Below the pieces are notes generated by a model. It saw only the letters and a program-made list of their open reading frames with translations. It had not been told where the DNA came from and made no database searches. Positions 1 to 12,584 of a DNA stretch of 12,584 nt are shown piece after piece (positions within the stretch are counted from its first letter, which is position 1; each line of letters starts with the position of its first letter). The DNA is from Okeania sp. GTDB lineage: Bacteria; Cyanobacteriota; Cyanobacteriia; Cyanobacteriales; Microcoleaceae. The DNA is taken from positions 1 through 12,584 of the forward strand of contig NZ_JAYKGW010000126.1 in the NCBI RefSeq assembly GCF_035285525.1, read 5' to 3'. Made by a program: the position numbers and the translations under genes.

Positions 1-158
1 GTTGCTCCTAATTTAGCAAATTGAAATTGTTTAATAACTACGTTTTTGTTGGTGTTGATATTTTCAGCTAAATAAGTGACTCTTCCGCCAATATTATTGT
101 GACCAAGTTCTCTAATTATTTGATAGCTTTGGGGATAAAAATTGGGGTGATTATTCAT
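1..158 (-). CDS. Ser/Thr protein kinase-like protein, first 52 codons only (gene runs off the left edge)
   Basis: Minus-strand ATG at 158..156. My translation is MNNHPNFYPQSYQIIRELGHNNIGGRVTYLAENINTNKNVVIKQFQFAKLGA. This has the layout of Hanks kinase subdomains I-II (Y-x-I-I-R-E-L-G ... G-G-x-V-Y-L-A ... V-V-I-K). The glycine loop is atypical (GHNNIGG). It is absent from the ORF track because the window edge truncates it. Confidence 0.5.
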   Translation of the reverse strand, partial: MNNHPNFYPQSYQIIRELGHNNIGGRVTYLAENINTNKNVVIKQFQFAKLGA

Positions 159-489
159 GGGTTTTTAGTAAATATTAAAGAATAGCAAATAGTGCAATTA
201 TTCGATATAGTCTTGATGCTGATATTTTGATCATTCCTTAATTTATTTTAGCTTATATTTTTTTATTTAGCTATGATTTTAACATTTTTAATCTTACATT
301 AATAAGGGTGTTATAGTGATATAAAAAAGCAGTCTTTACCATCAATAAGAGTTATTTAAAAAAATAAAAGTATGGTTTATCAATTGTTACTTAAACATCA
401 TTTATTTTGACTCCTAATAATGTAATGCAATTGATAATTTTTTCAAAGTTGCTACTGTAAGAAATTTGCTGAGAGATAATCATCCAATA

Positions 490-849
490 TTAAGAAAAAG
501 CAGGTCTACTTAAAGTTGCTTTTATACCTGATTCCCAGATTTTCCATAGTTTTTTATCAATCAATTTTAAGTCATGGTACAAAGAATATTCTTCAAAACA
601 TAAATCGAAATACAGTTCCATATAACGGAGAATTTTAATTTTTTCTGCTCTATCAAGATGATTTATATTGAAATGAGAATATAAAATACTTTCAGGTAAA
701 TTTATAATTATCTCTTGATATCTTCTTGTATATTCCCCAATATTTGCGACTAAAAGTTGTTTCTTAACACCTTTATTCTGCGACAAAATACTGAATAAAG
801 ATATAACTAGAGCGATAGTTGCAATAACCTCACTTGGATTGATTTTCAT
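490..849 (-). CDS. hypothetical small membrane-anchored protein (119 aa), AT-rich orphan
   Basis: ATG 849..847, TAA 492..490. One N-terminal hydrophobic helix (VIATIALVISLFSILS) is followed by a charged soluble part. A 119-codon open frame is non-trivial in DNA this AT-rich. There is no clear Shine-Dalgarno sequence and I recognise no family. Confidence 0.4.
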   Translation of the reverse strand: MKINPSEVIATIALVISLFSILSQNKGVKKQLLVANIGEYTRRYQEIIINLPESILYSHFNINHLDRAEKIKILRYMELYFDLCFEEYSLYHDLKLIDKKLWKIWESGIKATLSRPAFS

Positions 850-1222
850 AACTTAATTTATGGAGTAATAAAGTACAATTTTAACTAAAAATTGGTCTGA
901 TTTTCTCTTACGCAGAAAGCATAAGTTTGAATAATTTTGGTCAGTCATAAAAAATTACAAAATTAGCATTGTTTGACCTGAAGCACCCGATCTTCACTTA
1001 AATTCGACTTGAAAAGTTTCAAACAACACAAAAAGCTTAAAAAAAACTTACTACAACTTTTCCTAATTGCTGAACTCGCCAATAAGATTCCCACAACTAA
1101 CAAAATTAATAACTTTTCAACCAACAAAATATTACACTAAGTATTATAATGTAACCATCAATCGAATATGTCAAAATAATCAAGCAAACAACATTACTGA
1201 ACACAATTACGGAGAAAAAACA

Positions 1223-4012
1223 GTGGACTCCAAATATAACCCTGTATCCATTGAACAAAAGTGGCAAAAAAACTGGGCTGAACAAAACCAATATCAAACC
1301 CCCAAAAACAATACCCAACCGAAATTCTACGCTCTATCCATGTTCCCCTACCCATCCGGTAACTTACACATGGGTCATGTTCGTAATTACACCATCACCG
1401 ACGTTATTGCCCGACTCAAACGGATGCAAGGTTATCGTGTCCTGCACCCCATGGGTTGGGACGCTTTTGGACTCCCCGCAGAAAATGCAGCTATTGACCG
1501 GGGTATCCCACCCGCAAAATGGACCCTTCAAAATATTGCCCAAATGAAAGAACAACTAAGACGTTTGGGTTTCTCCATCGACTGGGATAAAGAAGTCGCT
1601 ACCTGCACCCCCGAATACTACCGTTGGACTCAATGGATATTCCTCCAATTTTTCCAAGCTGGTTTGGCCTATCAAAAAGAATCCGCCGTTAACTGGGACC
1701 CCATCGACCAAACCGTATTAGCCAACGAACAAGTAGATGGAGAAGGTCGTTCCTGGCGTTCGGGGGCAAAAGTAGAACGTAAATTGTTGCGTCAGTGGTT
1801 CTTCAAAATTACTGACTATGCCGAACAACTCCTCAATGATTTGGATAAGTTGTCTGGTTGGCCGGAACGAGTTAAACTAATGCAGGCAAACTGGATTGGC
1901 AAATCTGTCGGAGCTTATCTAGAATTTCCTATCGTCGGAATGGATGAAAAAATCGGAGTTTTCACCACCAGACCTGATACTGTCTACGGCGTTAGTTACG
2001 TTGTCTTAGCTCCCGAACATCCTTTGACGGCAAAAGTTACAACCCCCGAACAACAAGTCACTGTCGAAACTTTTATTCAAGAAGTCGCTGCCGAAAGTGA
2101 ACTAGAACGTACTGCCGAAGATAAACCAAAACGTGGCGTTCCCACTGGTGGCAAAGCTATCAATCCATTTAATAACAAAGAAGTTCCTATCTGGATCGCC
2201 GACTATGTACTTTATGAATATGGAACAGGTGCGGTTATGGGAGTACCTGCTCACGATGTTCGGGATTTCCAGTTTGCTAAACAATACGATTTACCCATTA
2301 AAACTGTAATAGTACCTGATGATTCTGATAATGATGACTATGAACTAACAGAAGCATATACCGAAGTTGGGGTGATGGTTAACTCTAGTTCTTTTAATGG
2401 GGAAAAATCTACCTTTGCCAAAAAAGCAATTATTGAACTTGCTGAAGAGGAAGGTTATGGAAAAGGTCGCGTACAATATCGTTTGCGAGATTGGTTGATT
2501 TCTAGACAACGTTATTGGGGCGCACCAATACCTATTATTCACTGTCCGAACTGTGGTGCTGTACCTGTACCGGATGCAGATTTGCCTGTGAAGTTGCCGG
2601 AAGATGTAGAATTTTCTGGTCGCGGCCCCTCACCGTTGGCAAAATTAGAAGATTGGGTGAATGTTCCTTGTCCGAGTTGTGGTACGACCGCAAAACGGGA
2701 GACTGATACGATGGATACTTTTATTGATTCGTCTTGGTATTATTTGCGTTATCCGGATGCGACAAATGAGGAGCAAGTGTTTGATTCGGAAATTGTAAAT
2801 GACTGGTTGCCTGTAGATCAATATGTGGGTGGTATCGAACACGCAATTTTGCATTTATTGTATTCCCGATTTTTTACTAAAGTTTTGCGCGATCGCGGCT
2901 TGTGTAATTTTGATGAACCTTTCGAGCGTTTATTAACTCAGGGAATGGTGCAAGGTATTACTTATAAAAATCCGGTGACTAATAAGTACATTCCGTTTAC
3001 AGATGTGAATCCGGAAGAACCGAAAGATCCGAAAACTGGGGATAAGTTGGAAGTTTTCTTTGAGAAAATGTCTAAATCTAAATATAACGGTGTCGATCCT
3101 TTGGAGGTAATGGCAAAATATGGTGCAGACACGGCGCGGATGTTTATTTTGTTTAAAGCACCACCGGAAAAAGATTTAGAGTGGGATGATGCTGATGTAC
3201 AAGGACAGTTTCGTTTTCTGAACCGAGTTTGGACTTTGGTAACGGAGTTTGCTGCCAATCATAGTTTGAGTCAGTTGAAGGTAAAAAATAATGGTATTAC
3301 TCAAGCAGAGTTGAAAGATTTAGGTTGGTCTCGGTATTTGATTACTGAAATCACGAAAAATCTTTCTGCATTTAAGTTGAGAAATGTGGTAAAGGTTTAT
3401 GCTATTAGTGATGTCAAAATGGCAATAGAAGCGAAATTTAATAATCCCGAAACTCAGCAAGAAACTAAGGATGATTTGCATAAAGGTTTAACTTTGATAG
3501 AAAGTAACTCTGATGGAGAGTTAAATAAAGCAGAGAAAGATGTCCGACGTGCGGTGCATACTGCTATCAAGGAAGTAACAGAAGATTTAGATGGAGATTA
3601 TCAATTTAATACTGCTGTTTCAGAGTTAATGAAATTGAGTAATGCTCTCAGTGATGCTAGTTGCAAAAATTCTCCTATTTACGCTGAAGGTTTGGAAACT
3701 TTGCTCTTGTTGTTAGCACCGTTTGCACCACATCTGACTGAGGAGTTGTGGGAACTTGCTGGTAATATTGGTTCCGTGCATATTCATCCTTGGCCGAAAT
3801 TTGACCCAGAAGCATTAGTGGTAGATGAGATCACATTGGTGATTCAGATTAAAGGTAAAACTAGAGGAACTATTCAGGTACCAGCAAAAGCAGATAAAGA
3901 AACTTTGGAAAAGTTGGCACGAGAGTCAGATGTTGGAAAGCGTAACTTGGAGGGTAAAGAGATTAAGAAAGTGATTGTGGTTCCTGGAAAGTTGGTTAAT
4001 TTTGTAGTTTGA
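1223..4012 (+). CDS. leuS: leucine--tRNA ligase (LeuRS)
   Basis: Class I HIGH motif (HMGHVRNY), KMSKS motif ([10 protein letters not shown]), a CP1 editing region and a LeuRS-type C-terminus ([10 protein letters not shown]). The conserved N-terminus [16 protein letters not shown] starts just after an in-frame GTG at 1223, which is preceded by GGAG at 1211-1214. The ORF-track start (TTG 1067) adds 52 low-complexity residues with no internal ATG. The product call is very confident; the start is about 0.6. Confidence 0.93.
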
Positions 4013-4067
4013 TAAAATAGGGAGATGGGAGATTTTTCAGTTATCAGTTAAGTAGGTTAAGTGTTTC

Positions 4068-4100
4068 AGAAACCCGGTTTTTCTAAAAAACCGGGTTTCT
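4068..4100 (+). terminator. near-perfect 33-nt palindrome AGAAACCCGGTTTTT-CTA-AAAAACCGGGTTTCT 56 nt after the leuS stop; candidate terminator or dispersed palindromic repeat
   Basis: A 15-bp stem (4068-4082 with 4086-4100) and a 3-nt loop. A third half-copy AAAAACCGGGTTTCT lies at 4108-4122. There is no clean U-tract after the full stem, so terminator function is uncertain. Confidence 0.4.
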
Positions 4101-4173
4101 AACTGGGAAAAACCGGGTTTCTAATTGTAAATTTTTTCACCTACCTATTTACTCATCTCAGTATTAACAAAAT

Positions 4174-4201
4174 GTTGGGTTTCGGAGTCCCTCAACCCAA
4201 C
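4174..4201. repeat. small GC-rich palindromic element GTTGGGTT-N12-AACCCAAC
   Basis: An 8-bp inverted repeat read directly from the sequence. It has the same style as the elements at 6311-6387 and 7696-7751. Confidence 0.55.
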
Positions 4202-4333
4202 CTACCCCTGCTTTTTCTTAGCTTTGACTTTTTTCTAAGGAAGGCAACTTTTGTAGTAAGTAAAACAGTTAATAAAGCTTTGATTCTAAACTAAAAGCAA
4301 TAGCTGTTAACACAGTTACGATCCAGGAGGCTA

Positions 4334-4357
4334 GCTGATGGCTGATGGCTGACGGCT
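4334..4357. repeat. STRR-type heptamer array (GCTGATG GCTGATG GCTGACG GCT)
   Basis: Three and a half 7-nt units, embedded in a copy (reverse orientation) of the GTAAGCAT-CAGC element family seen at 10652-11410. Confidence 0.6.
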
Positions 4358-4613
4358 AAATGCTCACATATTAACAAATAAATTTGAAGAAACAATTATT
4401 TGACATTTTTATAGATATAATTTTAGACTCTATCCTAACCACTCTTCAACTTAAAAAAATATCTGAAGATAACACAATCTTTCACTTATAACGGCAATTA
4501 TAAACCATAGTTAGTCCAGAATATACAAAAGTAATTAAGCAACTAAGTCAAATTTGTGATAAAACGATAGAATTATAAGCCATAGTATCTGACCACATAA
4601 TCTGAAAATTACC

Positions 4614-4854
4614 ATGAGTGAAACAAACAACGAATTAGTCGAAAATATGCCCAGGGAACAAAGAGTTGGACAACTACGCAACTTAATTGAAACCTTGCAT
4701 ATAGCTGATGAAGTGGCCAGCAAAGGCTATCTAATCACTAGCTCTGAACTGGCAGACTTAATGGACATCAATGCTAGTGCAGTTACTAGCCGTGGAGACC
4801 ATTGGGTATGGCGCAACTGGGTTGTGTCTAGAGTTCGTCGTGAAGGAAACCAAA
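4614..4854 (+). CDS. exon 1 of a small (89 aa when spliced) HTH-like conserved hypothetical protein interrupted by a group II intron
   Basis: ATG at 4614. Translation is MSETNNELVENMPREQRVGQLRNLIETLHIADEVASKGYLITSSELADLMDINASAVTSRGDHWVWRNWVVSRVRREGNQ. The stretch ITSSELADLMDINASAVTSRG looks like a helix-turn-helix. The ORF-track tail SAIRFC-stop (to 4874) is read-through into the intron, which starts with GTGCG at 4855. Confidence 0.7.
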
Positions 4855-4918
4855 GTGCGATTCGTTTCTGCTAAAAATTATGGTCATGTAGCACTACGTA
4901 AATAGGTTAGGACATTTA

Positions 4919-5278
4919 TAAATGCTCAAACTAAGTCAGGAATTATTTTTGACTTTTGACTTTTAACTTGCCCGTAGGAAATAGTTGAAGACATTTATCA
5001 ATCAGGATTTACCCATAGACCACATATATAGTGTCAAAAACTATAACGTTATAGTTTTTAAACTCCACATATAGTAGCTTTGCGTAAGTTCTGTAAATGC
5101 TCAAACTAAGTCAGGAATTATTTTTGACTTTTGACTTTTAACTTGCCCGTAGGAAATAGTTGAGGACATTTATAAATCAGGATTTACCCATAGACCTATA
5201 TATATAGTAGCTTTGCGTAAGTTCTGTAAATGCTCAAACTAAGTCAGAGATTAATGCATGACTTTTGAATTTTAACTT
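4919..5278 (+). repeat. degenerate tandem array (units start at 4919, 5094 and 5227; periods 175 and 133 nt) inside the intron 5' region
   Basis: Each unit starts TAAATGCTCAAACTAAGTCAG and ends GACTTTTGA(C/A)TTTTAACTT. That end is followed by GCCCGTAGGAAATAGT (4970, 5145) or by GTGCGTAGCGCTATAGT (5279). Unit 1 carries an extra 24-nt perfect palindrome AAAAACTATAACGTTATAGTTTTT (5036-5059) flanked by CCACATATA(TA)GT direct repeats. Confidence 0.85.
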
Positions 5279-5355
5279 GTGCGTAGCGCTATAGTACCAA
5301 AATGTGAGCAGAGTAAGGCCATTAGCCTTATAACTAAATGACCTTGGAGGTGAGA

Positions 5356-5362
5356 TTCCTTC
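5356..5362 (+). other. candidate EBS2 (TTCCTTC)
   Basis: Exact reverse complement of exon-1 nucleotides 4842-4848 (GAAGGAA). It lies in the loop of an imperfect hairpin (ACCTTGGAGG ... CCGCCCAGGT). Its distance to EBS1 (about 230 nt) is larger than usual, so this call is tentative. Confidence 0.45.
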
Positions 5363-5590
5363 CGCCCAGGTGCAGGGTTGACAGCATCACCCCTACGGTA
5401 GCGACTAGCCATCAATCCGTAAAGCGGGGTGAAAAGGTGGTAAAGCTAACAGCTTAAGTTGGTTCCCATCAAGCAAAATACCCATTGGATAGCTATAGTG
5501 CGAAGATGTGAGAGAAGCGTCGTCACGTTCAACCAGTGAAATAAGCTGTGGCACTGGAGCCAAAAGGCAAAGGATAGGGAGTTAGCGAGA

Positions 5591-5597
5591 TTTGGTT
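5591..5597 (+). other. candidate EBS1 (TTTGGTT) in a hairpin loop
   Basis: Exact reverse complement of the last 7 nt of exon 1 (AACCAAA, 4848-4854). It is presented in a 15-nt loop closed by GTTAG (5581-5585) and CTAAC (5601-5605). Confidence 0.7.
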
Positions 5598-5701
5598 CGA
5601 CTAACCAGCACTTCCCCTAAACCCGGCGCAAAGCATCATCCTAAAGGTATATAAATAAGGTCATTTGGAACGAAGTAACCCATGAAAAACTCTTTTTTTG
5701 A

Positions 5702-5764
5702 GCTTTCAGCAATCAGCTTTCAGCAGAAGAAGTCAGAAGTCATAAGTCAGAAGTCAGAAGTTAA
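5702..5764. repeat. in-phase heptamer (STRR) array: GCTTTCA GCAATCA GCTTTCA GCAGAAG AAGTCAG AAGTCAT AAGTCAG AAGTCAG AAGTTAA
   Basis: Nine consecutive 7-nt units read directly from the sequence, located within the intron upstream of the IEP ORF. Confidence 0.8.
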
Positions 5765-5784
5765 ATTCTTGCTGTGACTATACC

Positions 5785-5843
5785 TGATTGCTGATAACTA
5801 AAAAAGCTGTTAACTAAAAAAGCTGATAACTGATAACTGAATC
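5785..5843. repeat. CTGATAA-type heptamer repeats interleaved with CTAAAAAAG
   Basis: The sequence reads CTGATTG CTGATAA CTAAAAAAG CTGTTAA CTAAAAAAG CTGATAA CTGATAA CTGAATC. Confidence 0.7.
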
Positions 5844-5900
5844 AAGTAGGTGCTAACCGTATGTTTGATTGGGAGGGATTGTGTCAGAAGCAAAAGCACT

Positions 5901-5949
5901 TAATGGATAATGAGTAATGAATAATGAATAATGAATAATGAATAATGAG
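5901..5949. repeat. heptamer array TAATGAA x7 (with variants TAATGGA and TAATGAG)
   Basis: Seven in-phase 7-nt units. Confidence 0.85.
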
Positions 5950-5992
5950 TAGTTTTCACTACTCTAATTATAAATTAGACAACCTCTGGGTG

Positions 5993-6034
5993 TTAATTAT
6001 TAATTATTAATTATTAATTATTAATTATCAATTT
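5993..6034. repeat. heptamer array TTAATTA x5 plus a degenerate sixth unit
   Basis: Units fall at 5993, 6000, 6007, 6014 and 6021, then TCAATTT. The array ends about 60 nt before the IEP start codon. Confidence 0.85.
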
Positions 6035-6092
6035 AGGGTATGCAGACGGACACACGGTGATTAGGAATGTAGAGTTTGAGTAAGTAATATAT

Positions 6093-7586
6093 ATGTCTAA
6101 TACGAGTTTAAAGACTACGGGGGAATGGAAGGAATGGCGCAATATTAACTGGTTAAAGGTTGAGCGTCGAGTCTTCAAGTTACAAAAAAGAATCTACAAT
6201 GCCTCTCAACGTGGTGATGTTATTGCAGTTCGTAAACTCCAAAAAATGTTGCTCAAATCCTGGTATGGCAAGTTGTTAGCCGTGCGCAGTAGTTTATCTA
6301 GATTAAAACCTAACCCCCCAACCCCCTTAAGTGATACCGTTGGGGGAGAAAGGCTCCCCTCTCCTTGCAGGAAAGGGGTTGGGGAAGAAGTATTCATTTC
6401 TGAAACTTACCCACAAAATAAATCTAGACATCCTAGTAGGGTTAATCAAAGTAGCCAGGGTGAAAAAATAGCTGCAGTTGGTAGTATGAAATCATTGTCT
6501 CCAGAAAAATGTTTTGCCTTGGCGAAAAGATTGAAACTAAATAAGAAAGTTAAACCTGTAACCAGCACTGTTGAAGACTTTGCCAGGCAAATACTTGTCA
6601 AGATAGCTCTAGAAAAACAATGGGAACCCAAGTTTCATATTGATTCTCATGGGTTGATGCTAGGGAAATCATGTCAGGATACTATAGAAGCAATTGTTAA
6701 TTGTGTCAAGTTTCAGCCTAAATATGTACTTAAAGCTGATATCACTAACTGTTTTGACTGTCTTGACAATGAACAACTTTTACAAAAATTAGATACCTAT
6801 CCGACTTTACGCAAACAAATTAGGGTTTGGTTAAAAGATAGGAAAAAGTTGTTTTTAACAGATGAAGTTATTTCTCCACTACTGGTAAATATAGTTTTCT
6901 TTGGTATAGAAAAACAAATCAAATATTATGCTGAAACACTTAATAATAAATGTGAAAGTTTAAGTTTGATTCGTTATGGAAATAGCTTGGCGATCGCTCA
7001 CAAAAATATTGAGGTAATTCAAAAGTGCCAAGATATAATTACAGAATATTTATCTGAATTATTTGGGGAATTAAAGCCAAGTCAAATCAGAATTTATCAC
7101 ACACTAAATAAGTGTGGTGAAGAAAAAGCTGGATTTGAGTTTTTAGGATTTAATATCAGACAATATCAGGTGAGTAAAAACCAAAGTAAGCTAGGTTTTC
7201 AAACCAAAATTAAACCAAGTAAGGAAAGTATCAAAATTCATTATTGTCAAATTGCTGAGGTGATAGATAAACATAAATCTGCACCACAAATTGCCTTAAT
7301 CAGAAAACTCAATCCTCTTGTAAAAAATTGGGTAAATTATTACTCAAAATTTGTGAGTAAGAAAACTTTCCACGATGTGGATAGTTTAATATTCCAAAAA
7401 CTTTGGGTTTGGGCAAAAAGAAGACATTCTAATAAAAATAACCATTGGATTTGTCAAAAATATTGGCAAACTATTGAGGGGAAAAATAGGGAATTTTCTG
7501 GTAGTAGCAAGAATGGCAATCAAGTTAGATTATTGAGACACGGAGACTGGATTTATTGGAGCAAAAAAAAGGCACTGAATATTTAA
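6093..7586 (+). CDS. group II intron-encoded protein with a degenerate RT domain (maturase-like, probably RT-inactive, no En domain)
   Basis: RT-0-like N-terminus: WKEWRNINWLKVERRVFKLQKRIYNASQRGDVIAVRKLQKMLLKSWYGKLLAVR. Remnants of RT2-RT7: ILVKIALEKQWEPKF, KYVLKADITNCFD, VISPLLVNI, SLIRYGNSLAIAH, FEFLGFNIRQY. Well-kept domain X: LIRKLNPLVKNWVNYYS ... LWVWAKRRH. The ORF sits in the intron between domains I-III and V. Confidence 0.85.
   Translation: MSNTSLKTTGEWKEWRNINWLKVERRVFKLQKRIYNASQRGDVIAVRKLQKMLLKSWYGKLLAVRSSLSRLKPNPPTPLSDTVGGERLPSPCRKGVGEEVFISETYPQNKSRHPSRVNQSSQGEKIAAVGSMKSLSPEKCFALAKRLKLNKKVKPVTSTVEDFARQILVKIALEKQWEPKFHIDSHGLMLGKSCQDTIEAIVNCVKFQPKYVLKADITNCFDCLDNEQLLQKLDTYPTLRKQIRVWLKDRKKLFLTDEVISPLLVNIVFFGIEKQIKYYAETLNNKCESLSLIRYGNSLAIAHKNIEVIQKCQDIITEYLSELFGELKPSQIRIYHTLNKCGEEKAGFEFLGFNIRQYQVSKNQSKLGFQTKIKPSKESIKIHYCQIAEVIDKHKSAPQIALIRKLNPLVKNWVNYYSKFVSKKTFHDVDSLIFQKLWVWAKRRHSNKNNHWICQKYWQTIEGKNREFSGSSKNGNQVRLLRHGDWIYWSKKKALNI
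6297..6428. repeat. 126-nt in-frame insertion in the IEP gene, bounded by TCTAGA direct repeats and containing a GC-rich palindromic element
   Basis: TCTAGA occurs at 6297-6302 and 6423-6428, which is 126 nt or 42 codons apart. Inside, CCCCAACCCCCTT (about 6316-6328) pairs with AAGGGGTTGGGG (6373-6384), and there is an inner hairpin GGGGAG-AAAGG-CTCCCC. The insertion splits the conserved ...LLAVR | RVNQ... junction of RT-0. Confidence 0.6.
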
Positions 7587-7695
7587 TTCAAAAGATAAAA
7601 ATAGGACTTAAACAACTAAATAATAAATGGAGTTTATTCTCCTAATTATTATTTTTCTAGTTATAGTAATCCTAAATAGGTTGTAAGATTTTATC

Positions 7696-7751
7696 GTAGG
7701 GGTTTGGAGACCAAACCCAAGCGCCAATGGATTTGGAAACCAAACCCCTAC
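7696..7751. repeat. GC-rich multi-hairpin palindromic element GTAGGGGTTTGG ... CCAAACCCCTAC in the intron 3' of the IEP ORF
   Basis: A 12-bp terminal inverted repeat (7696-7707 with 7740-7751). Inner hairpins are GGTTTGG-AGA-CCAAACC and TTTGG-AAA-CCAAA. Confidence 0.65.
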
Positions 7752-7915
7752 AGTTTTTTCTCACAAATTATTTGAGATTGCTATACTAAATTTAGTTTTT
7801 ACTTAAGTCCTAAAAAAGACAAAGTGCTAACTGTAATTCATCAACATTACTACAATGTCAAAACTGTTAATAACGACAGTAGAGGTACTCTGTTAATTAG
7901 AGTTTAATCACTGAG

Positions 7916-7949
7916 GAGCCGGATGAGGTGAAAGTCTCACGTCCGGTTT
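7916..7949 (+). ncRNA. group II intron domain V
   Basis: The 34-nt sequence GAGCCGGAU-GAGGU-GAAA-GUCUC-AC-GUCCGGUUU has the AGC catalytic triad at positions 2-4, a GAAA tetraloop and a 2-nt AC bulge on the 3' strand. This matches the canonical domain V architecture. Confidence 0.9.
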
Positions 7950-7950
7950 T

Positions 7951-7990
7951 GAAGACGAGCAGTTCTGGTGATGGAATTGCTTAGTTTAAC
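7951..7990 (+). ncRNA. group II intron domain VI with candidate branch-point A at 7983
   Basis: The helix pairs 7953-7965 with 7974-7987, around an 8-nt loop TGGTGATG. A7983 is the single bulged base, 7 nt upstream of the proposed 3' splice site (...AAC | TTCTC). Confidence 0.7.
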
Positions 7991-8019
7991 TTCTCTGGCA
8001 ATTAGAAAGAGTAGATTAA
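7991..8019 (+). CDS. exon 2 of the intron-interrupted small HTH-like protein (completes codon A|TT, then LWQLERVD, stop)
   Basis: Joining 4854 to 7991 gives AAC CAA ATT CTC TGG CAA TTA GAA AGA GTA GAT TAA. Total length is 270 nt (89 aa plus stop). The boundary rests on domain VI geometry and on the frame. Confidence 0.65.
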
Positions 8020-8060
8020 ATTTACTCATAATTTTCTGTTGAATTAGGAAATTAAAGATT

Positions 8061-8108
8061 AGCGATCGCTTACTTTTTTAGTTGAGGAGCGATCGCTTAC
8101 TTTTTTTA
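8061..8108. repeat. two copies of AGCGATCGCTTACTTTTTT(T) (HIP1 palindrome plus T-run)
   Basis: Copies at 8061-8080 and 8088-8108, about 40 nt after the exon 2 stop. The palindrome is too short for a convincing terminator stem. Confidence 0.7.
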
Positions 8109-8241
8109 GGAACCTAGAAGAATCTATAGAAGCCTAACCGTATACTTGCTTCCAGGAGGGGCTAACTAGGGCTTGCTGATTAAATCTAAAAGTCTTTATA
8201 GATAGGACTTACTGAAAAAGTCTTTTAGTAGTGGGTAGGAG

Positions 8242-8269
8242 CCAGAATCCAGAATTCAGAACTCAGGAG
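8242..8269. repeat. STRR heptamer array CCAGAAT CCAGAAT TCAGAAC TCAGGAG
   Basis: Four 7-nt units read directly from the sequence. Confidence 0.6.
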
Positions 8270-8478
8270 GAATAAGAATAATAGAAGAGGCAGCCAGAAG
8301 AATCTTCCCTTAATTTTTTGCCTCTCGAAATGCCCAAAATCCTACCTAGATTTTTGAGCTGGAATCACCTAAAAGCTGGTACTTTATTAGGGTCTATAAA
8401 TGCTGAAAGCAATGCCCATAAACACTTTGATAAATAATTTAGCCAGCCCTAGATAGAGGTAAGTGCCTTTTTTAGTCG

Positions 8479-8594
8479 TGATTGATCGGGAACCGTAAAA
8501 GTACCAGATTTTTGCCCCTTTTGGGTAAAAAAGTGAGTATTTTGGTGATAGCAACCAAGTCAAGGAATAATTTTTCTGATTGATCGGGAACCGT
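8479..8594. repeat. 18-nt perfect direct repeat TGATTGATCGGGAACCGT (8479-8496 and 8577-8594) flanking 80 nt of unrelated sequence
   Basis: Read directly from the sequence. The flanks outside the repeats are unrelated to each other. Confidence 0.75.
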
Positions 8595-8746
8595 GTACGC
8601 CTCCTACAACTCCTTATTCCTCTTGACTCTTCACTACTCCCTCCCAAGCGGAAAAAGATAGAAATATATTCCAGAACAGAGCTACTCCAGGAGATACTGA
8701 TAACCATTAGCGCATATCCGACCTAGGAGGCTAACTGATAACTGAA

Positions 8747-10408
8747 TTATGCTGGTTTAGCATAGACTCCCATCAATTCTAGAGTATCCTTAATGTTGAG
8801 AAGCAATTCTTGTTCAATGTTGAGGTATTCAAGTGAATCTATGGTTAGAACATAGGCAAACAACTCAAGCTCGATTGTCTCATTGTTCAAGTTAGTGAGA
8901 CTGACTTTTTCCTCATTAAGTTTTGGATGCTTCGTGAACATACTTCGTAGATTTTCCATAATTTCTGGTAAACTATTATGGGCAATCTCGTAGTTTAAAA
9001 CAACAGTATGCTTGAAAACATACTTATCGCGCCTACTATGATTAACAATCTGAGATGTCGAAACTACCGTATTGGGGACAGTAATAAGGGTGCGATCTTC
9101 CCTCCGAATTAAAGTTCCCTGTAAACCGATATCCTCTATTGTTCCTGTCACACCACCTAGCTCACAAAAATCCCCGATCTGCACCGAACGATTAATAAAT
9201 AAAGTCAAACCACCCACCATATTTTCTATATATGGTCTCACTCCTAAACCAATAGCAATGCCACCAACTCCCAAGCTCGCTAAAATTGGGCCTACAGCTA
9301 TACCAATTTCTGCACTACCATAATAAAAGACTATTAATGCTGCCAAAATTCCTAGCAGATCAAATCCATGACGAGCAATAATTGCTTGAAGTGACTTTTC
9401 TTCAACATGAGACGTATTAGCGATGACATAGCTACCAATGCCATTGAACACCATAAAAACTAACCAACCTAAAACCAAAGCTTCTAAAATAGTTGCTATT
9501 ATCAATAGATTCTCTAAAATTTTACCCGTAATGTTTAATAGTTCATTAACCAGGAACTGCCAAAAGATAATCATCCCCAGAGCTAAAAGCGGTAGCAATA
9601 ATCCTAACCATGCCTTTTGCTTGCGATCAATAGCAGTATAATAACGTTTCACAAAAAGTCGCATTGCCAAAATTTTAGCAATCAGCAATAAAGTGATTGT
9701 CACTAGGCTAAACCATTGCCAGAGAGTCTGTCCATACACCAGTATAGTTGTCCACTTTGGCAGCCAATTACTCCATTTAGGGGGTAGGAGGCTGCCAGGG
9801 GTACTAATATAAAAGGAGTAGAAATTAGGTGAAGTTTTCCATATATTTGATTGATTGTAGGGTAAATTTTTGATCTCTTGATAAAATGTTTTGAGGCGTT
9901 CGACTGTGTCAGTGGAGAAGAGAAATTCTCCTTCATTATAACCTTCTTTAACCAACTCAATGGTAATCTTGCTCTTGGGAACATTCCAACGAGTTATGGA
10001 TTTTGCTGCAACAGTTTGTTCGTTAGGAATTTGGCTGACTGGAGGAAGGCCAACGCGGTCTAACACCTCTTTGAGTAATAATGCAGATTCTATACCAACA
10101 TCTTTACGATCAATAGGGGCAACTTTTTCAAGATTTAAGGTTTGAAGAGCCCTATTAAAAGCCAAATCTGCATCATAGCCTTTTTTTCGCACCTCTGGTG
10201 AGTTCCTGAAACCGCTTTCCTGCTTTGTCTGTTTTTCGGCTTCCTTGAGCAGGACATAAGCCTTATTCATATTTACAATAAATTCCCTGAGAGTGTTATA
10301 TGGACTGGTGGTAATAGGTGGTGCGAGGGGAGTATCGCTTGTATTATTGCCAATAACAGCATACTGACTTAGGAGAATGATAGCAAAAACAACTATCCCT
10401 TGTAACAA
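8747..10408 (-). CDS. MscS-family mechanosensitive ion channel protein with a large N-terminal extracytoplasmic domain
   Basis: 553-aa ORF with several TM helices at about residues 225-390. The Gly/Ala-rich pore-helix-like segment IGIAVGPILASLGVGGIAIGLG is followed by ENMVGGLTLFINRSVQIGDFCELGGVTGTIEDIGLQGTLIRREDRTLITVPNTVVSTSQIVNHS, which is the MscS beta-domain signature. The only in-frame start after the upstream TAA (10417..10415) is TTG at 10408, so the start is uncertain. Confidence 0.85.
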   Translation of the reverse strand: MLQGIVVFAIILLSQYAVIGNNTSDTPLAPPITTSPYNTLREFIVNMNKAYVLLKEAEKQTKQESGFRNSPEVRKKGYDADLAFNRALQTLNLEKVAPIDRKDVGIESALLLKEVLDRVGLPPVSQIPNEQTVAAKSITRWNVPKSKITIELVKEGYNEGEFLFSTDTVERLKTFYQEIKNLPYNQSNIWKTSPNFYSFYISTPGSLLPPKWSNWLPKWTTILVYGQTLWQWFSLVTITLLLIAKILAMRLFVKRYYTAIDRKQKAWLGLLLPLLALGMIIFWQFLVNELLNITGKILENLLIIATILEALVLGWLVFMVFNGIGSYVIANTSHVEEKSLQAIIARHGFDLLGILAALIVFYYGSAEIGIAVGPILASLGVGGIAIGLGVRPYIENMVGGLTLFINRSVQIGDFCELGGVTGTIEDIGLQGTLIRREDRTLITVPNTVVSTSQIVNHSRRDKYVFKHTVVLNYEIAHNSLPEIMENLRSMFTKHPKLNEEKVSLTNLNNETIELELFAYVLTIDSLEYLNIEQELLLNIKDTLELMGVYAKPA

Positions 10409-10651
10409 GAGTTTTTAATTAATCTCATATTCTGATAATAATCTCAACCAAACAATTTTAGAGACACTTTGTTTATAGAAAATAGGAAACACTGAATCTC
10501 AAATTTGTAGTAAATATTTATTCAGGTGATATAATATCGTATTTAGGGTTTCTCTGTAAATATATAGATAAGAATATTGAATAAAGATTTAAAAAATTAG
10601 AAATAAACTTCAAAATTATTGTCGATTGTTTAATGTATAGCAATTCTATTT

Positions 10652-11410
10652 GATTCCTGGTAAGCATTCAGTAGTCAGCCATCAGCTATCAGCTCTTTAA
10701 TAAATAGTGCTAAATCTAGTAATATCAGTTAAATAAAGCATATTATTCCGGTAAGCATTCAGCACTCAGCTATTGATTTTATTTTGAGAAAAAAGCTTGA
10801 TGATACGTTTCCCGATAAATCAGAAATTTTATCTGACTACAAAATTCAGTTCTCACTTTCTTTATTCCTTTAAATATATTTGTTAAAATTGAGGTTTTTA
10901 TTGCTGATGGCTGACAGTTAATAGCTGAATGCTTACGATTCCTGTAAAAGATTTTATTGCTTTTAGGGAATAGGAAACAGGTAGGAGTTTGAGTTTTTTA
11001 TTTACTTTTTTTATTGATCGCAACCTATTTAGGATTGCTATATAATGCACTAGGCTATTTAAGATGAAGTATAAATCTTAATTTTTAATGTAAAATTAAG
11101 CTAAATTTCACAACTTATTCATGCTGTTAGTTTTTCATAAATAAATAATAAAGTAAGCATTTAGCTGTTAGATATTAGCTATCAGTTAGGGTTTTGGGTC
11201 GGAACTGCCTCTTACAGAGGAGCTTTCCTACGGAATGCTTTGTATTCATGTGGTGCAGCGTTATTATTAATGAATATATATCCGACTTTTCTACTTTTGT
11301 AGTAATATTTAATTTTAGCTTAATAGTATGGTTTTTATCACAAATAAAAATCATAGCTGATAGTTTTTAGCTGAGGGCTGTTTGCACAGCATTCTCCAGG
11401 AAATGCTTAC
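10652..11410. repeat. cluster of at least 5 copies, in both orientations, of a roughly 35-45-nt element (ATTCC(T)GGTAAGCATTCAGC + CAGCNAT heptamers)
   Basis: Forward copies at 10652-10695, 10745-10775 and 11153-11189. Inverted copies at 10901-10944 and 11354-11410. Related copies occur at 4321-4367 and 8721-8746. Confidence 0.6.
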
Positions 11411-11445
11411 ATAATAAAACTACTATGTAATGACAGATAAGGTTT

Positions 11446-12297
11446 ATGAAATATCAACTTAAGCAGTTATTATTTTTATTTCCCATACTTCTAATATTAG
11501 TTAGTTGTAGTGGATTTAATAATTCTACAAATACAGGAGAACAGACTCAACCAACACAAACATCTACTACGCCAGCTAAACCATTAGATTATCAAAACTA
11601 CACCTCAATTTTAAAGGAATATGTCAACGACCAAGGATTAGTTGACTACGAAAAATTAAAAGAAAATAGACAACCACTTGATGAGTTTAATGCTGCTATT
11701 GGAGCTGTCACTCCCAGCACTTATAATTCTTGGAATGATTCAGAAAAAATTGCTTTTTTAATTAATTCTTATAACTCTTTAACTTTAGAATCTATTATTG
11801 ATAATTACCCCACTAAAAGTATTAGAAGAATCCCTGGTGTTTGGAAGATTAGAAAATTTGATGTTGCTGGGGAAAAAATGACATTAGACCATATTGAACA
11901 TCAGGTTTTACGGAAAGAATTTAATGAACCAGGTATTCATGTTGCCTTAGTTTGTGCAGCAATAAGTTGTCCTCCACTTAGACGGGAAGCTTACACTGGT
12001 GAACTACTAGAAAAACAATTAGAAGATCAAGCTAGACAATTTTTAGGAGGTAGTCAAGGCTTCAGAATAGACAGTGAAAATAATACTGTTTATTTATCTT
12101 CAATTTTTAAATGGTTTGGTGAAGATTATGAAAAAACTTATGGTCAAGGTGAGAATATTGAAGGTTTAAATAAAACAGAAAGTTCTATTATAAATTATGC
12201 TCGTCAATATGTAAGTTCTGATGCTCAAAACTTTTTAGCAAAAGCTGGTTATAAAGTTAAATATTCTAACTATGATTGGTCTTTGAATGTTCAATAA
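11446..12297 (+). CDS. DUF547 domain-containing lipoprotein
   Basis: Signal peptide with a lipobox (LLILVSCSG). The core AFLINSYNSLTLESII ... GEKMTLDHIEHQVLRKEFNEPGIHVALVCAAISCPPLRREAY matches the DUF547 motif pattern as I remember it (NAYN ... LDxIEHxILR ... RIHFALVCAS.SCPxL). Confidence 0.85.
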   Translation: MKYQLKQLLFLFPILLILVSCSGFNNSTNTGEQTQPTQTSTTPAKPLDYQNYTSILKEYVNDQGLVDYEKLKENRQPLDEFNAAIGAVTPSTYNSWNDSEKIAFLINSYNSLTLESIIDNYPTKSIRRIPGVWKIRKFDVAGEKMTLDHIEHQVLRKEFNEPGIHVALVCAAISCPPLRREAYTGELLEKQLEDQARQFLGGSQGFRIDSENNTVYLSSIFKWFGEDYEKTYGQGENIEGLNKTESSIINYARQYVSSDAQNFLAKAGYKVKYSNYDWSLNVQ

Positions 12298-12319
12298 TAG
12301 TATGGGTATTTTAGTCGAT

Positions 12320-12341
12320 GTAACACAGGCATCTTGCCTGT
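12320..12341. repeat. inverted copy of the downstream repeat core that forms a 7-bp hairpin (ACAGGCA-TCT-TGCCTGT)
   Basis: GTAACACAGGCATCTTGCC (12320-12338) is the reverse complement of GGCAAGATGACTGTGTTAC with one mismatch. The hairpin spans 12325-12341, about 20 nt after the DUF547 stop. Confidence 0.65.
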
Positions 12342-12420
12342 AATAATAGAAATCTGGTTTGTATAAAATGCCTTACTGAAAAACTAGGTTTTTTTGCTCT
12401 GAAGACGGGTTTATTTAATC

Positions 12421-12584
12421 TTACTAACTGGCAAGATGACTGTGTTACTAAACTATTAACTGGCAAGATGACTGTGTTACTAAACTATTAATTGGCAAGA
12501 TGACTGTGTTACTAAACTATTAATTGGCAAGATGACTGTGTTACTAAACTATTAATTGGCAAGATGACTGTGTTACTAAACTAT
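12421..12584 (+). repeat. 32-nt head-to-tail tandem repeat, at least 5 copies, truncated by the window edge
   Basis: The unit is TTGGCAAGATGACTGTGTTACTAAACTATTAA. GGCAAGATGAC starts at 12430, 12462, 12494, 12526 and 12558. Copies are nearly identical and there are no spacers. Confidence 0.9.

Follow-up and report, generated by a model that had tools for sequence, protein, structure and literature searches.

Why would the 5′ splice site of a bacterial group II intron be separated from the body of its ribozyme by tandem repeats? The question is raised by a 12,584-nucleotide (nt) stretch of Okeania sp. DNA (contig NZ_JAYKGW010000126.1, positions 1 to 12,584; hereinafter, the window), in which an intron interrupts a small protein-coding gene and the pentamer GTGCG, with which the intron begins, is found on the plus strand at 4855, 5279 and 5498. 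The preliminary description of this DNA placed the start of domain I at the second GTGCG, took three intervening repeat units for diverged copies of the intron 5′ end and was aware of no published intron built in this way. The three pentamers and the three units are real, the units containing the 28-nt sequence TGACTTTTGA(C/A)TTTTAACTTG(CC/TG)CGTAG at 4950, 5125 and 5259. A single GTGCG carries no weight because the pentamer occurs 8 times on the plus strand, compared with ~4.3 expected. The explanation that, in our view, is very probably correct is more ordinary: the intron is an orthologue of the known Trichodesmium intron Tr.e.I7, in which a nest of MITEs (miniature inverted-repeat transposable elements) has grown within the loop of a dispensable domain I hairpin.

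The intron is identified through its host gene, its splice junctions and its ribozyme. Exon 1 (4614-4854, plus strand) belongs to an orthologue of Tery_4732 of Trichodesmium erythraeum IMS101: the nearest relatives of the host protein are 86-amino acid (aa) proteins of Okeania, Dapis and Trichodesmium, Tery_4732 among them, and most of its uninterrupted homologues from other cyanobacteria measure 90-104 aa. Tery_4732 was shown by reverse transcription PCR to be interrupted by a twintron (Pfreundt & Hess 2015, PMC4649490); its annotated C-terminus, SAIRFC, is an intron read-through, splicing restores ILWQLERVD, and the host intron of the twintron, Tr.e.I7, is of the IIB2 class, with the 5′ end GUGCGAUUC (PMC4649490). 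The window follows the same pattern. As annotated, the host gene is an 86-aa open reading frame (ORF; 4614-4874, plus strand) that reads through into the intron and ends in ...SAIRFC; joining 4854 to 7991 yields ...REGNQILWQLERVD*, and exon 2 (7991-8019, plus strand), which codes for (I)LWQLERVD and a stop, is the conserved C-terminus described in PMC4649490. The junctions, ...GNQ|GUGCGAUUC and ...UUUAAC|UUCUCUGG, are those of Tr.e.I7. Exon-binding site 1 (EBS1), TTTGGTT at 5592-5598, lies in a region conserved in nearly all orthologues and is complementary to AACCAAA, the last 7 exon bases (4848-4854). The frame-restoring junction 4854|4855 was thus chosen correctly in the preliminary description, as it is identical to the experimentally mapped junction of the orthologue and is backed by the EBS1 pairing. 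A candidate for EBS2, TTCCTTC at ~5350, was rejected, being part of a local hairpin and showing no covariation with the T. erythraeum exon.

Rfam, Pfam and BLAST recognize the remainder of this group IIB intron (5294-7990, plus strand). Ribozyme domains 5 and 6 (D5-D6) occupy 7913-7990, with scores of 57.6 bits for RF00029 (threshold 40) and 62.4 bits for RF04357 (threshold 53), and the whole window contains a single D5/D6 and a single intron-encoded protein. The intron is 83-96% identical to Tr.e.I7 at the nucleotide level. When Tr.e.I7 is stripped of the inner intron, nt 1-36 of the window intron correspond to nt 1-37 in T. erythraeum and nt 437-840 to nt 32-436, the latter at 96% identity. 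The same intron start, GTGCGATTCGTTTCTGCTAAAA, is present in all 20 further orthologous loci (designated by L numbers below) that were fetched via the host protein and the intron-encoded protein; a scan of the genome collection with intron-encoded-protein peptides revealed no relative, the source genome itself not being a species representative. Judged by its site and its similarity, the intron at 4855-7990 is the Okeania orthologue of the group IIB intron Tr.e.I7, located at the same position in the Tery_4732 orthologue, and such introns are evidently widespread in the Okeania/Dapis/Trichodesmium group.

Where, then, does the ribozyme begin? The Rfam models of domains I-IV gave no hit, either at gathering or at permissive thresholds, and the boundaries are instead fixed by alignment of the orthologues. 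The first 33 intron nucleotides, GTGCGATTCGTTTCTGCTAAAAATTATGGTCAT, are found at 4855-4887 (plus strand), near-identical in 14 orthologues including T. erythraeum. They are followed by the left copy of a TA target-site duplication (4887-4888; TG in the window and in L018, TA in L011); the right copy is at 5292-5293, and the intron resumes at 5294 with GTACCAAAATGTGAGCAGAG. Deletion of 405 nt (4889-5293) in silico renders the 5′ region of the window base-for-base colinear with the 14 orthologues, and without the variable insert, the first 91 intron nucleotides are exactly colinear in all 15 loci. An insertion of 405 nt therefore interrupts the intron, which continues at 5294, and 5279 is not the start of the ribozyme. 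Of the explanations proposed in the preliminary description, that of an insertion is right in that the intervening DNA is indeed one; the first 33 intron nucleotides are genuine and lie upstream of it.

The empty form of this site reads GGTCA-TA-GTRCC, with a single TA, and the filled form GGTCA-TA-[element]-TA-GTRCC. The site, at intron nt 33/34, is empty in T. erythraeum and in seven of the loci (L074, L009, L012, L005, L013, L016 and L017), is occupied by one 103-112-nt element in the forward (L018 and L011) or reverse (L006-8) orientation, and contains a 303-nt nest, also reversed, in L076. The insert length thus is 0, 103-112 or 303 nt among the orthologues, and the 405 nt of the window are the largest. 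Yet another TA, 5 nt downstream, is occupied by a related element in L010, L014 and L015.

The nests and elements in the relatives show some features of their own. The L076 nest (2852-3154, intron nt 34-336) uses the same TA and is built on a reverse-oriented MITE of the family described below as MITE-A, with an internal partial duplication, the heptamers TTCTAAA and CTTCTGA and a nested palindromic element. The element at the downstream TA (intron nt 38-39; e.g. L010 7280-7385) is bounded by TAGCA...TGCTA ends, is flanked by TA and includes a (GCAGAAG)n array; in L015, it hosts a nested palindromic element, CCCCCCTTACCCCCCTTTGAAAGGGGGG, and a further copy is found at L015 10175-10242.

The single element in the orthologues has TAGCRCTACG...CGTAGYGCTA ends, a TA on each side and an array of (TTTTGAM)n heptamers, and the same structure recurs outside the intron. 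The family that we denote MITE-A is defined by the inverted repeats TAGCRCTACGC...GCGTAGCGCTA, by duplication of a TA target and by a (TTTTGAC)n array in its interior, with the consensus TAGCACTACGCAAATAGGTTAGGACATTTATAAATGCTC...(TTTTGAC)n...TTGCGCGTAGCGCTA. A strict 26-base pattern taken from the 5′ part of MITE-A has 54 matches in a collection of genomes from 185,579 species, 52 of these outside this intron, and all 54 come from Okeania, Dapis, Oscillatoria sp. SIO1A7, Microcoleaceae and similar cyanobacterial metagenome-assembled genomes (MAGs). The 42 complete copies span 84-218 nt, with the mode at 101-102 nt; a TA is present on each side in ~40 of the 42, and the sequence beyond the TA is not conserved. 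The heptamer unit varies by subfamily (TTTTGAC, TTCTGAC, CTATTCC, TTCTAAA). By these features, MITE-A is a MITE with TA target duplication. Duplication of TA is typical of IS630/Tc1-mariner-type transposases. Promoter-like sites that might form an outward promoter in these MITEs were not enriched (8 compared with 6.5 +/- 2.8), and this candidate function was rejected.

A profile built from non-intron copies of MITE-A only gave 74 nhmmer hits in the 0.66 Mb of fetched loci, a number inflated by the fact that most of these loci were fetched because they contained the element. In the window, the profile matches three times, at 4889-4977, 5093-5152 and 5226-5291. In copy 1 (4889-4979, plus strand; profile positions 1-96, E=1.4e-20), the 5′ inverted repeat, TAGCACTACG, is intact and a (TTTTGAC)n array is present, whereas the 3′ end is degenerate; no element is nested in this copy. 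Copies 2 and 3 are each broken by an element of a second family, MITE-B, after ...CATTTAT(C/A)AAT. The 3′ part of copy 2 (5094-5152, plus strand; profile positions 30-96, E=8e-7) opens with the TAAAT duplication of MITE-B; the 3′ part of copy 3 (5227-5291, plus strand; profile positions 30-101, E=6e-7) belongs to the AATGCATGA subfamily, of which 7 other copies were found, and ends with an intact 3′ inverted repeat, GTGCGTAGCGCTA, that contains the second GTGCG (5279). Taken together, these matches indicate that the insert holds two or three fused copies of MITE-A.

The sequences that had been read as copies of the intron 5′ end all find their place in this element. The motifs GCCCGTAGGAAATAGT and GTGCGTAGCGCTATAGT are MITE terminal-repeat sequence, and the true 5′ end of the intron, GTGCGATTCGTTTCTGC (GTGCGATTCG...), resembles neither. 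Specifically, GTGCGTAGCGCTATAGT joins the 3′ inverted repeat of MITE-A to the duplicated TA and to nt 35-36 of the intron, and the supposed pseudo-exon GACTTTTGACTTTTAACTT is the MITE-A heptamer array. In the degenerate GCCCGTAGGAAATAGT, the first part matches the 3′ inverted repeat, GCNCGTAG, and the remainder matches the next copy in its subterminal 5′ region, AAATAGGTTAGGAC. The corresponding junction, GCCCGTAGGAAATAG (4970-4985, plus strand; repeated at 5145-5160), compared with the consensus ends ...CTTGCGCGTAGCGCTA and TAGCACTACGCAAATAGGTTAGGAC, can be inferred to be a remnant of a MITE-A 3′ inverted repeat fused to that subterminal region. The most common MITE-A end, CTTGCGCGTAGCGCTA, is present in 16 of the 42 copies, and the GTGCG of the window is one base off its GCGCG. 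The same GTGCG variant is found at this position in only two of the 42 other copies, the unrelated non-intron ones L054 and L060. The unit is a common dispersed repeat and, by the preliminary description's own test, this refutes the reading as intron copies.

MITE-B is defined by CAGGAYTTACSCA ends and the TAAAT duplication, with the terminal inverted repeats CAGGACTTACGCA...TGCGTAAGTCCTG. Copy 1 (5003-5093, plus strand, 91 nt) has the ends CAGGATTTACCCA...TGCGTAAGTTCTG, a central palindrome and TCAAT/TAAAT flanks, and is nested in MITE-A copy 2; copy 2 (5178-5226, plus strand, 49 nt) is a derivative of copy 1 that lacks 42 nt and is flanked by TAAAT on both sides. The TAAAT after both copies is a 5-bp duplication of the MITE-A target sequence. 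In the related loci (0.66 Mb), another 20 elements with MITE-B ends were detected, most of them between short duplications of 4-6 bp; MITE-B copies span 49-131 nt, and the nearest relatives of those in the window are in L012 and L005. The long form is likely to be ancestral because it matches the independent copy in L012. In addition to transposition, local duplication contributed to the array. The direct repeats 4919-5021 and 5094-5196 are 98% identical, a third, partial unit starts at 5227, and the 98% repeat spans the 3′ part of a MITE-A, the junction, the 5′ part of the next MITE-A and the start of MITE-B. Identity at this level across four consecutive pieces implies that a 175-nt unit, the second of which begins at 5094, was duplicated locally and recently, whereas the different subfamily of the last 3′ part (5227-5291) implies that two independent MITE-A insertions preceded the duplication. 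Serial slippage or recombination, another explanation offered in the preliminary description, accordingly survives as a local tandem duplication, although one of a MITE rather than of the intron 5′ end.

The order of the events can be tentatively reconstructed as follows. A MITE-A of ~100 nt, with its heptamer microsatellite, would have inserted at the TA at intron nt 33/34, in the apical loop of a hairpin. A second MITE-A, of another subfamily, would then have joined it head-to-tail, with subsequent decay of the palindromic junction between the copies, and a MITE-B would have inserted into the second MITE-A, duplicating TAAAT. Unequal recombination or slippage could have duplicated the 175-nt unit in tandem, after which one of the MITE-B copies would have lost 42 nt, bringing the insert to 405 nt. 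Splicing would still proceed at 4854|4855 and 7990|7991, and the nest, folded out of the way, would extend the hairpin.

The location of the insert in the ribozyme is compatible with this last step. From the 91-nt cores, RNAalifold predicts two hairpins. The first has the stems 13-18/48-53, 23-25/42-44 and 28-30/37-39 and the loop 31-36, with compensatory changes at two stem pairs, and the second is at 54-72. The downstream sequence AAAUGACCUU has its complement, AAGGUCAUUU, at the end of domain I, and all five substitutions among orthologues in this domain I basal helix retain the pair as G-U. In this model, two hairpins (~62 nt) lie between GUGCG and the domain I basal helix, a lineage-specific insertion that Tr.e.I7 shares, and the MITE sits at the apex of a lineage-specific, peripheral domain I hairpin. 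The predicted minimum-energy fold of 4855-5350 (-132 kcal/mol, z = -4.7) pairs 4867-4872 (UCUGCU, the 5′ strand of the hairpin) with 5307-5312 (AGCAGA, its 3′ strand) and the MITE ends 4887-4899 with 5281-5293. The predicted fold closes the host hairpin, so the nest can fold as its extension.

The intron ORF (6093-7586) is intact and encodes a 497-aa protein with RVT_N, RVT_1 and GIIM domains (Pfam). The reverse transcriptase (RT) motif YADD is replaced by YGNS in the window (RYGNSLAIAH, about 6970-6990), and the same position reads YG(N/G/D/S)(S/N) in all aligned orthologues, Tr.e.I7 included; no HNH domain was found in this protein or in the aligned orthologues. A typical cyanobacterial relative, P0149, keeps both YADD and HNH. 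To judge from these motifs, the intron-encoded protein is probably a maturase only and the intron immobile; an RT-dead protein of the maturase type would imply vertical inheritance of the intron. The ORF also contains an in-frame insertion of ~150 nt (6285-6436), which is G/C-rich and palindromic, has inverted ends containing TCTAGA and adds ~50 aa (SSLSRLKPNPP...RHPS) behind LLAVR, in the stretch that separates RVT_N from the RT domain. This insertion is common to the window and P0123, the other orthologues lack it, and it looks like another small repeat element, translated within the maturase.

Several observations weigh against a MITE nest in a working intron. The array is known from a single MAG contig, and its junction AACTTGCCCGTAGGAAATAGTTGA was not found in a scan of a metagenome collection. 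The closest alleles, in L078 and L079, two short metagenome contigs that encode a host protein 99% identical to that of the window and share its private 5′ variant AAAAATTATGG, are empty at the site (GGTCATAGTACC). No autonomous transposase with matching ends was found in the fetched loci, where only two candidate pairings of ends at a distance of 300-4000 nt turned up. The recurrence of elements at the same TA in both orientations could be due to independent hits or to inversion. Finally, with 405 additional nt only 33 nt into the intron, folding could be slowed or blocked. As to the two short contigs, in L078 (566-598) the empty site runs directly into the Nextera adapter CTGTCTCTTATACACATCT, i.e. 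an untrimmed adapter in a public assembly, and L079, from another sample, ends at the same base.

The alternative that best withstands the comparison, albeit an unlikely one, is that the MITE nest has inactivated the intron, leaving the host protein truncated at ...GNQSAIRFC and the locus a young pseudogene. The size of the insert, the largest at this site, its proximity to the 5′ splice site, the existence of near-identical insert-free alleles and the dispensability of the host protein in some cyanobacteria (PMC4649490) all speak for it. Nevertheless, the 497-aa ORF is intact, D5/D6 score well above the Rfam thresholds, the pairing of EBS1 with the intron-binding site (IBS1) is perfect and exon 2 is unchanged. 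MITE-bearing versions of the intron, with a single MITE or the 303-nt nest, persist in several lineages, including twintron-bearing ones; the predicted fold leaves the host hairpin closed; and no plus-strand terminator-like site was found in the insert. Because the ORF, the core motifs, the EBS1-IBS1 pairing and exon 2 are all intact, we infer that the intron of the window strain continues to be spliced.

A much less plausible alternative is that the tandem array is an artefact of MAG assembly and that the real locus contains a single MITE or none. The reliance on one contig, the absence of the junction pattern from the metagenome collection and the empty site in short contigs of related samples speak for it. 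However, the units differ by point changes, by the 42-nt indel and by the different 3′ subfamily, which is unlike collapsed or expanded repeats, and an independent 303-nt nest exists in L076.

The notion that the units derive from the intron itself, as relics of nested insertions of the twintron type or as serial duplications of its 5′ end, suggested by the GTGCG at 5279, the loose likeness of GCCCGTAGGAAATAGT to GTGCGTAGCGCTATAGT and the real twintron in the Trichodesmium orthologue, can be safely dismissed: both motifs are MITE-A terminal sequence with 52 sites outside the intron and are unlike the true 5′ end, the orthologous single copies read GCAGG or AACG where the window reads GTGCG, the insert contains no second D5/D6 or intron-encoded protein, no similarity to the inner intron, Tr.e.I8, is detectable by BLAST anywhere in the window, and it is removal of the MITE nest (4889-5293), rather than of an inner ribozyme, that restores the outer intron. 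The observation in the preliminary description that the inner GTGCG junction is not a copy of the homing site holds.

The orthologues also bear on the history of the twintron, an arrangement that has been reported within Trichodesmium only (PMC4649490). The Tr.e.I8 site, which lies 120 nt further downstream in Trichodesmium than the repeat insert of the window, is empty in the window at 5412|5413 (GCGACTAGCCAT|CAATCCG, within 5401-5425) and in L005, L009-L018 and L076, Okeania/Dapis orthologues among them; the full twintron is present in L006-8 and L074. Because the site is empty in many orthologues, the host intron of the Trichodesmium twintron appears to be older than the inner one. Compared with Tr.e.I7, then, the window intron shares the host gene, the junctions, the IIB ribozyme and a maturase-type protein but comes from Okeania, lacks Tr.e.I8, and carries the nest at nt 33/34 as well as the extra in-frame repeat in the ORF.

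One further claim concerned a duplicate inside domain I (5289-5313 and 5493-5519). The similarity is present, but once the MITE-derived GCTAT is excluded, it shrinks to 15 of 21 positions (5294-5313 and 5499-5519) and is limited to one clade. In the MITE-free domain I region, there is one match of at least 16/21, compared with 0.05 per shuffle, and the duplicate is stronger in some orthologues (17/18 in L009 and L012); in a second clade, it is absent, the site reading AAAGCGAAGATGTAATTGAAG, with AAGCG and no third GTGCG. The duplicate is best treated as a weak, clade-limited similarity.

Other repeats abound in and around the intron. The segment between domain I and the intron ORF (5697-6033) contains arrays of the heptamers TTTCAGC, AGAAGTC, CTGATAA, TAATGAA and TTAATTA and of a 16-mer, and different heptamers occupy the same place in orthologues; by their sequence, these arrays are microsatellites akin to STRR (short tandemly repeated repetitive) sequences and evolve fast within the intron. 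In the closest relatives, a 102-nt element with MITE-B-type ends, CAGGACTTACGCA...TTAAGTCCTA, directly follows the stop of the intron ORF (L075 1693-1794, L076 5331-5432, L077 1672-1773), and the window contains a degenerate version at 7590-7700 (TAGGACTTAAACAAC...GTAATCCTAAA). The long imperfect palindrome GTAGGGGTTTGGAGACCAAACCC...GGAAACCAAACCCCTAC at 7696-7752, in the 3′ region of the intron, looks like yet another small repeat element. Outside the intron, a 32-nt unit, TAATTGGCAAGATGACTGTGTTACTAAACTAT, is repeated five times with 99% identity at 12425-12584 and runs off the end of the contig, and L005 contains a long tandem array (71-1620) of units related to the MITE-B palindromic core AAAACTATAACGTTATAGTTTTT.

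Intron, MITE insertion, nesting and tandem duplication are all of known kinds, and the architecture is in this sense ordinary. MITE-A shares with the known bacterial MITEs, including Nezha, which PMC10969869 mentions as a cyanobacterial MITE (Zhou et al. 2008), a size of ~100 nt, the lack of coding capacity, terminal inverted repeats flanked by TA, dispersal in many copies, polymorphism for presence or absence, and nesting. Unlike these, MITE-A carries a variable heptamer microsatellite, the unit of which differs between subfamilies. The searchable literature on MITEs in Trichodesmium or Okeania and in group II introns yielded no description of the MITE-A family or of MITEs in domain I of group II introns, which is only weak evidence of absence. 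A parallel comes from another catalytic RNA: Vioque reportedly found, in 1997, that the RNase P RNA gene of heterocyst-forming cyanobacteria contains STRR heptamer repeats, and tested their function. There, too, a catalytic RNA of filamentous cyanobacteria tolerates heptamer-containing repeats in a peripheral helix; however, RNase P is not an intron, and the repeats are plain tandem heptamers rather than an element with inverted repeats and a target duplication.

In several lineages, related MITEs have landed, in either orientation, at one of two TA sites that are 5 nt apart, and have then expanded. Conceivably, although we consider this improbable, the apical loop is a recurrent landing pad, with the length variation tuning the kinetics of folding and splicing and thereby altering the expression of the host protein. 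If so, strain-specific length variation of 0-405 nt, 33 nt from the 5′ splice site of an immobile, maturase-dependent intron, would affect a conserved RNase HI-associated host protein, and the system would be a bacterial counterpart of the transposon-driven intron growth and splicing modulation of eukaryotes.

Regardless, the analysis removes a false lead, as there is neither a new intron architecture nor a duplicated 5′ splice site, and extends the range of the Tery_4732 intron to Okeania, Dapis and Hydrocoleum-type genomes. It also provides an example of an immobile bacterial intron that gains bulk via nested MITEs and heptamer arrays: in orthologues without the inner intron, D5 starts 2191-3134 nt from the 5′ splice site, a spread that fits the large non-coding fraction of these genomes. 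By joining STRR-like heptamer arrays to a TA-targeting mobile element, MITE-A may also be of interest for the study of cyanobacterial repeats.

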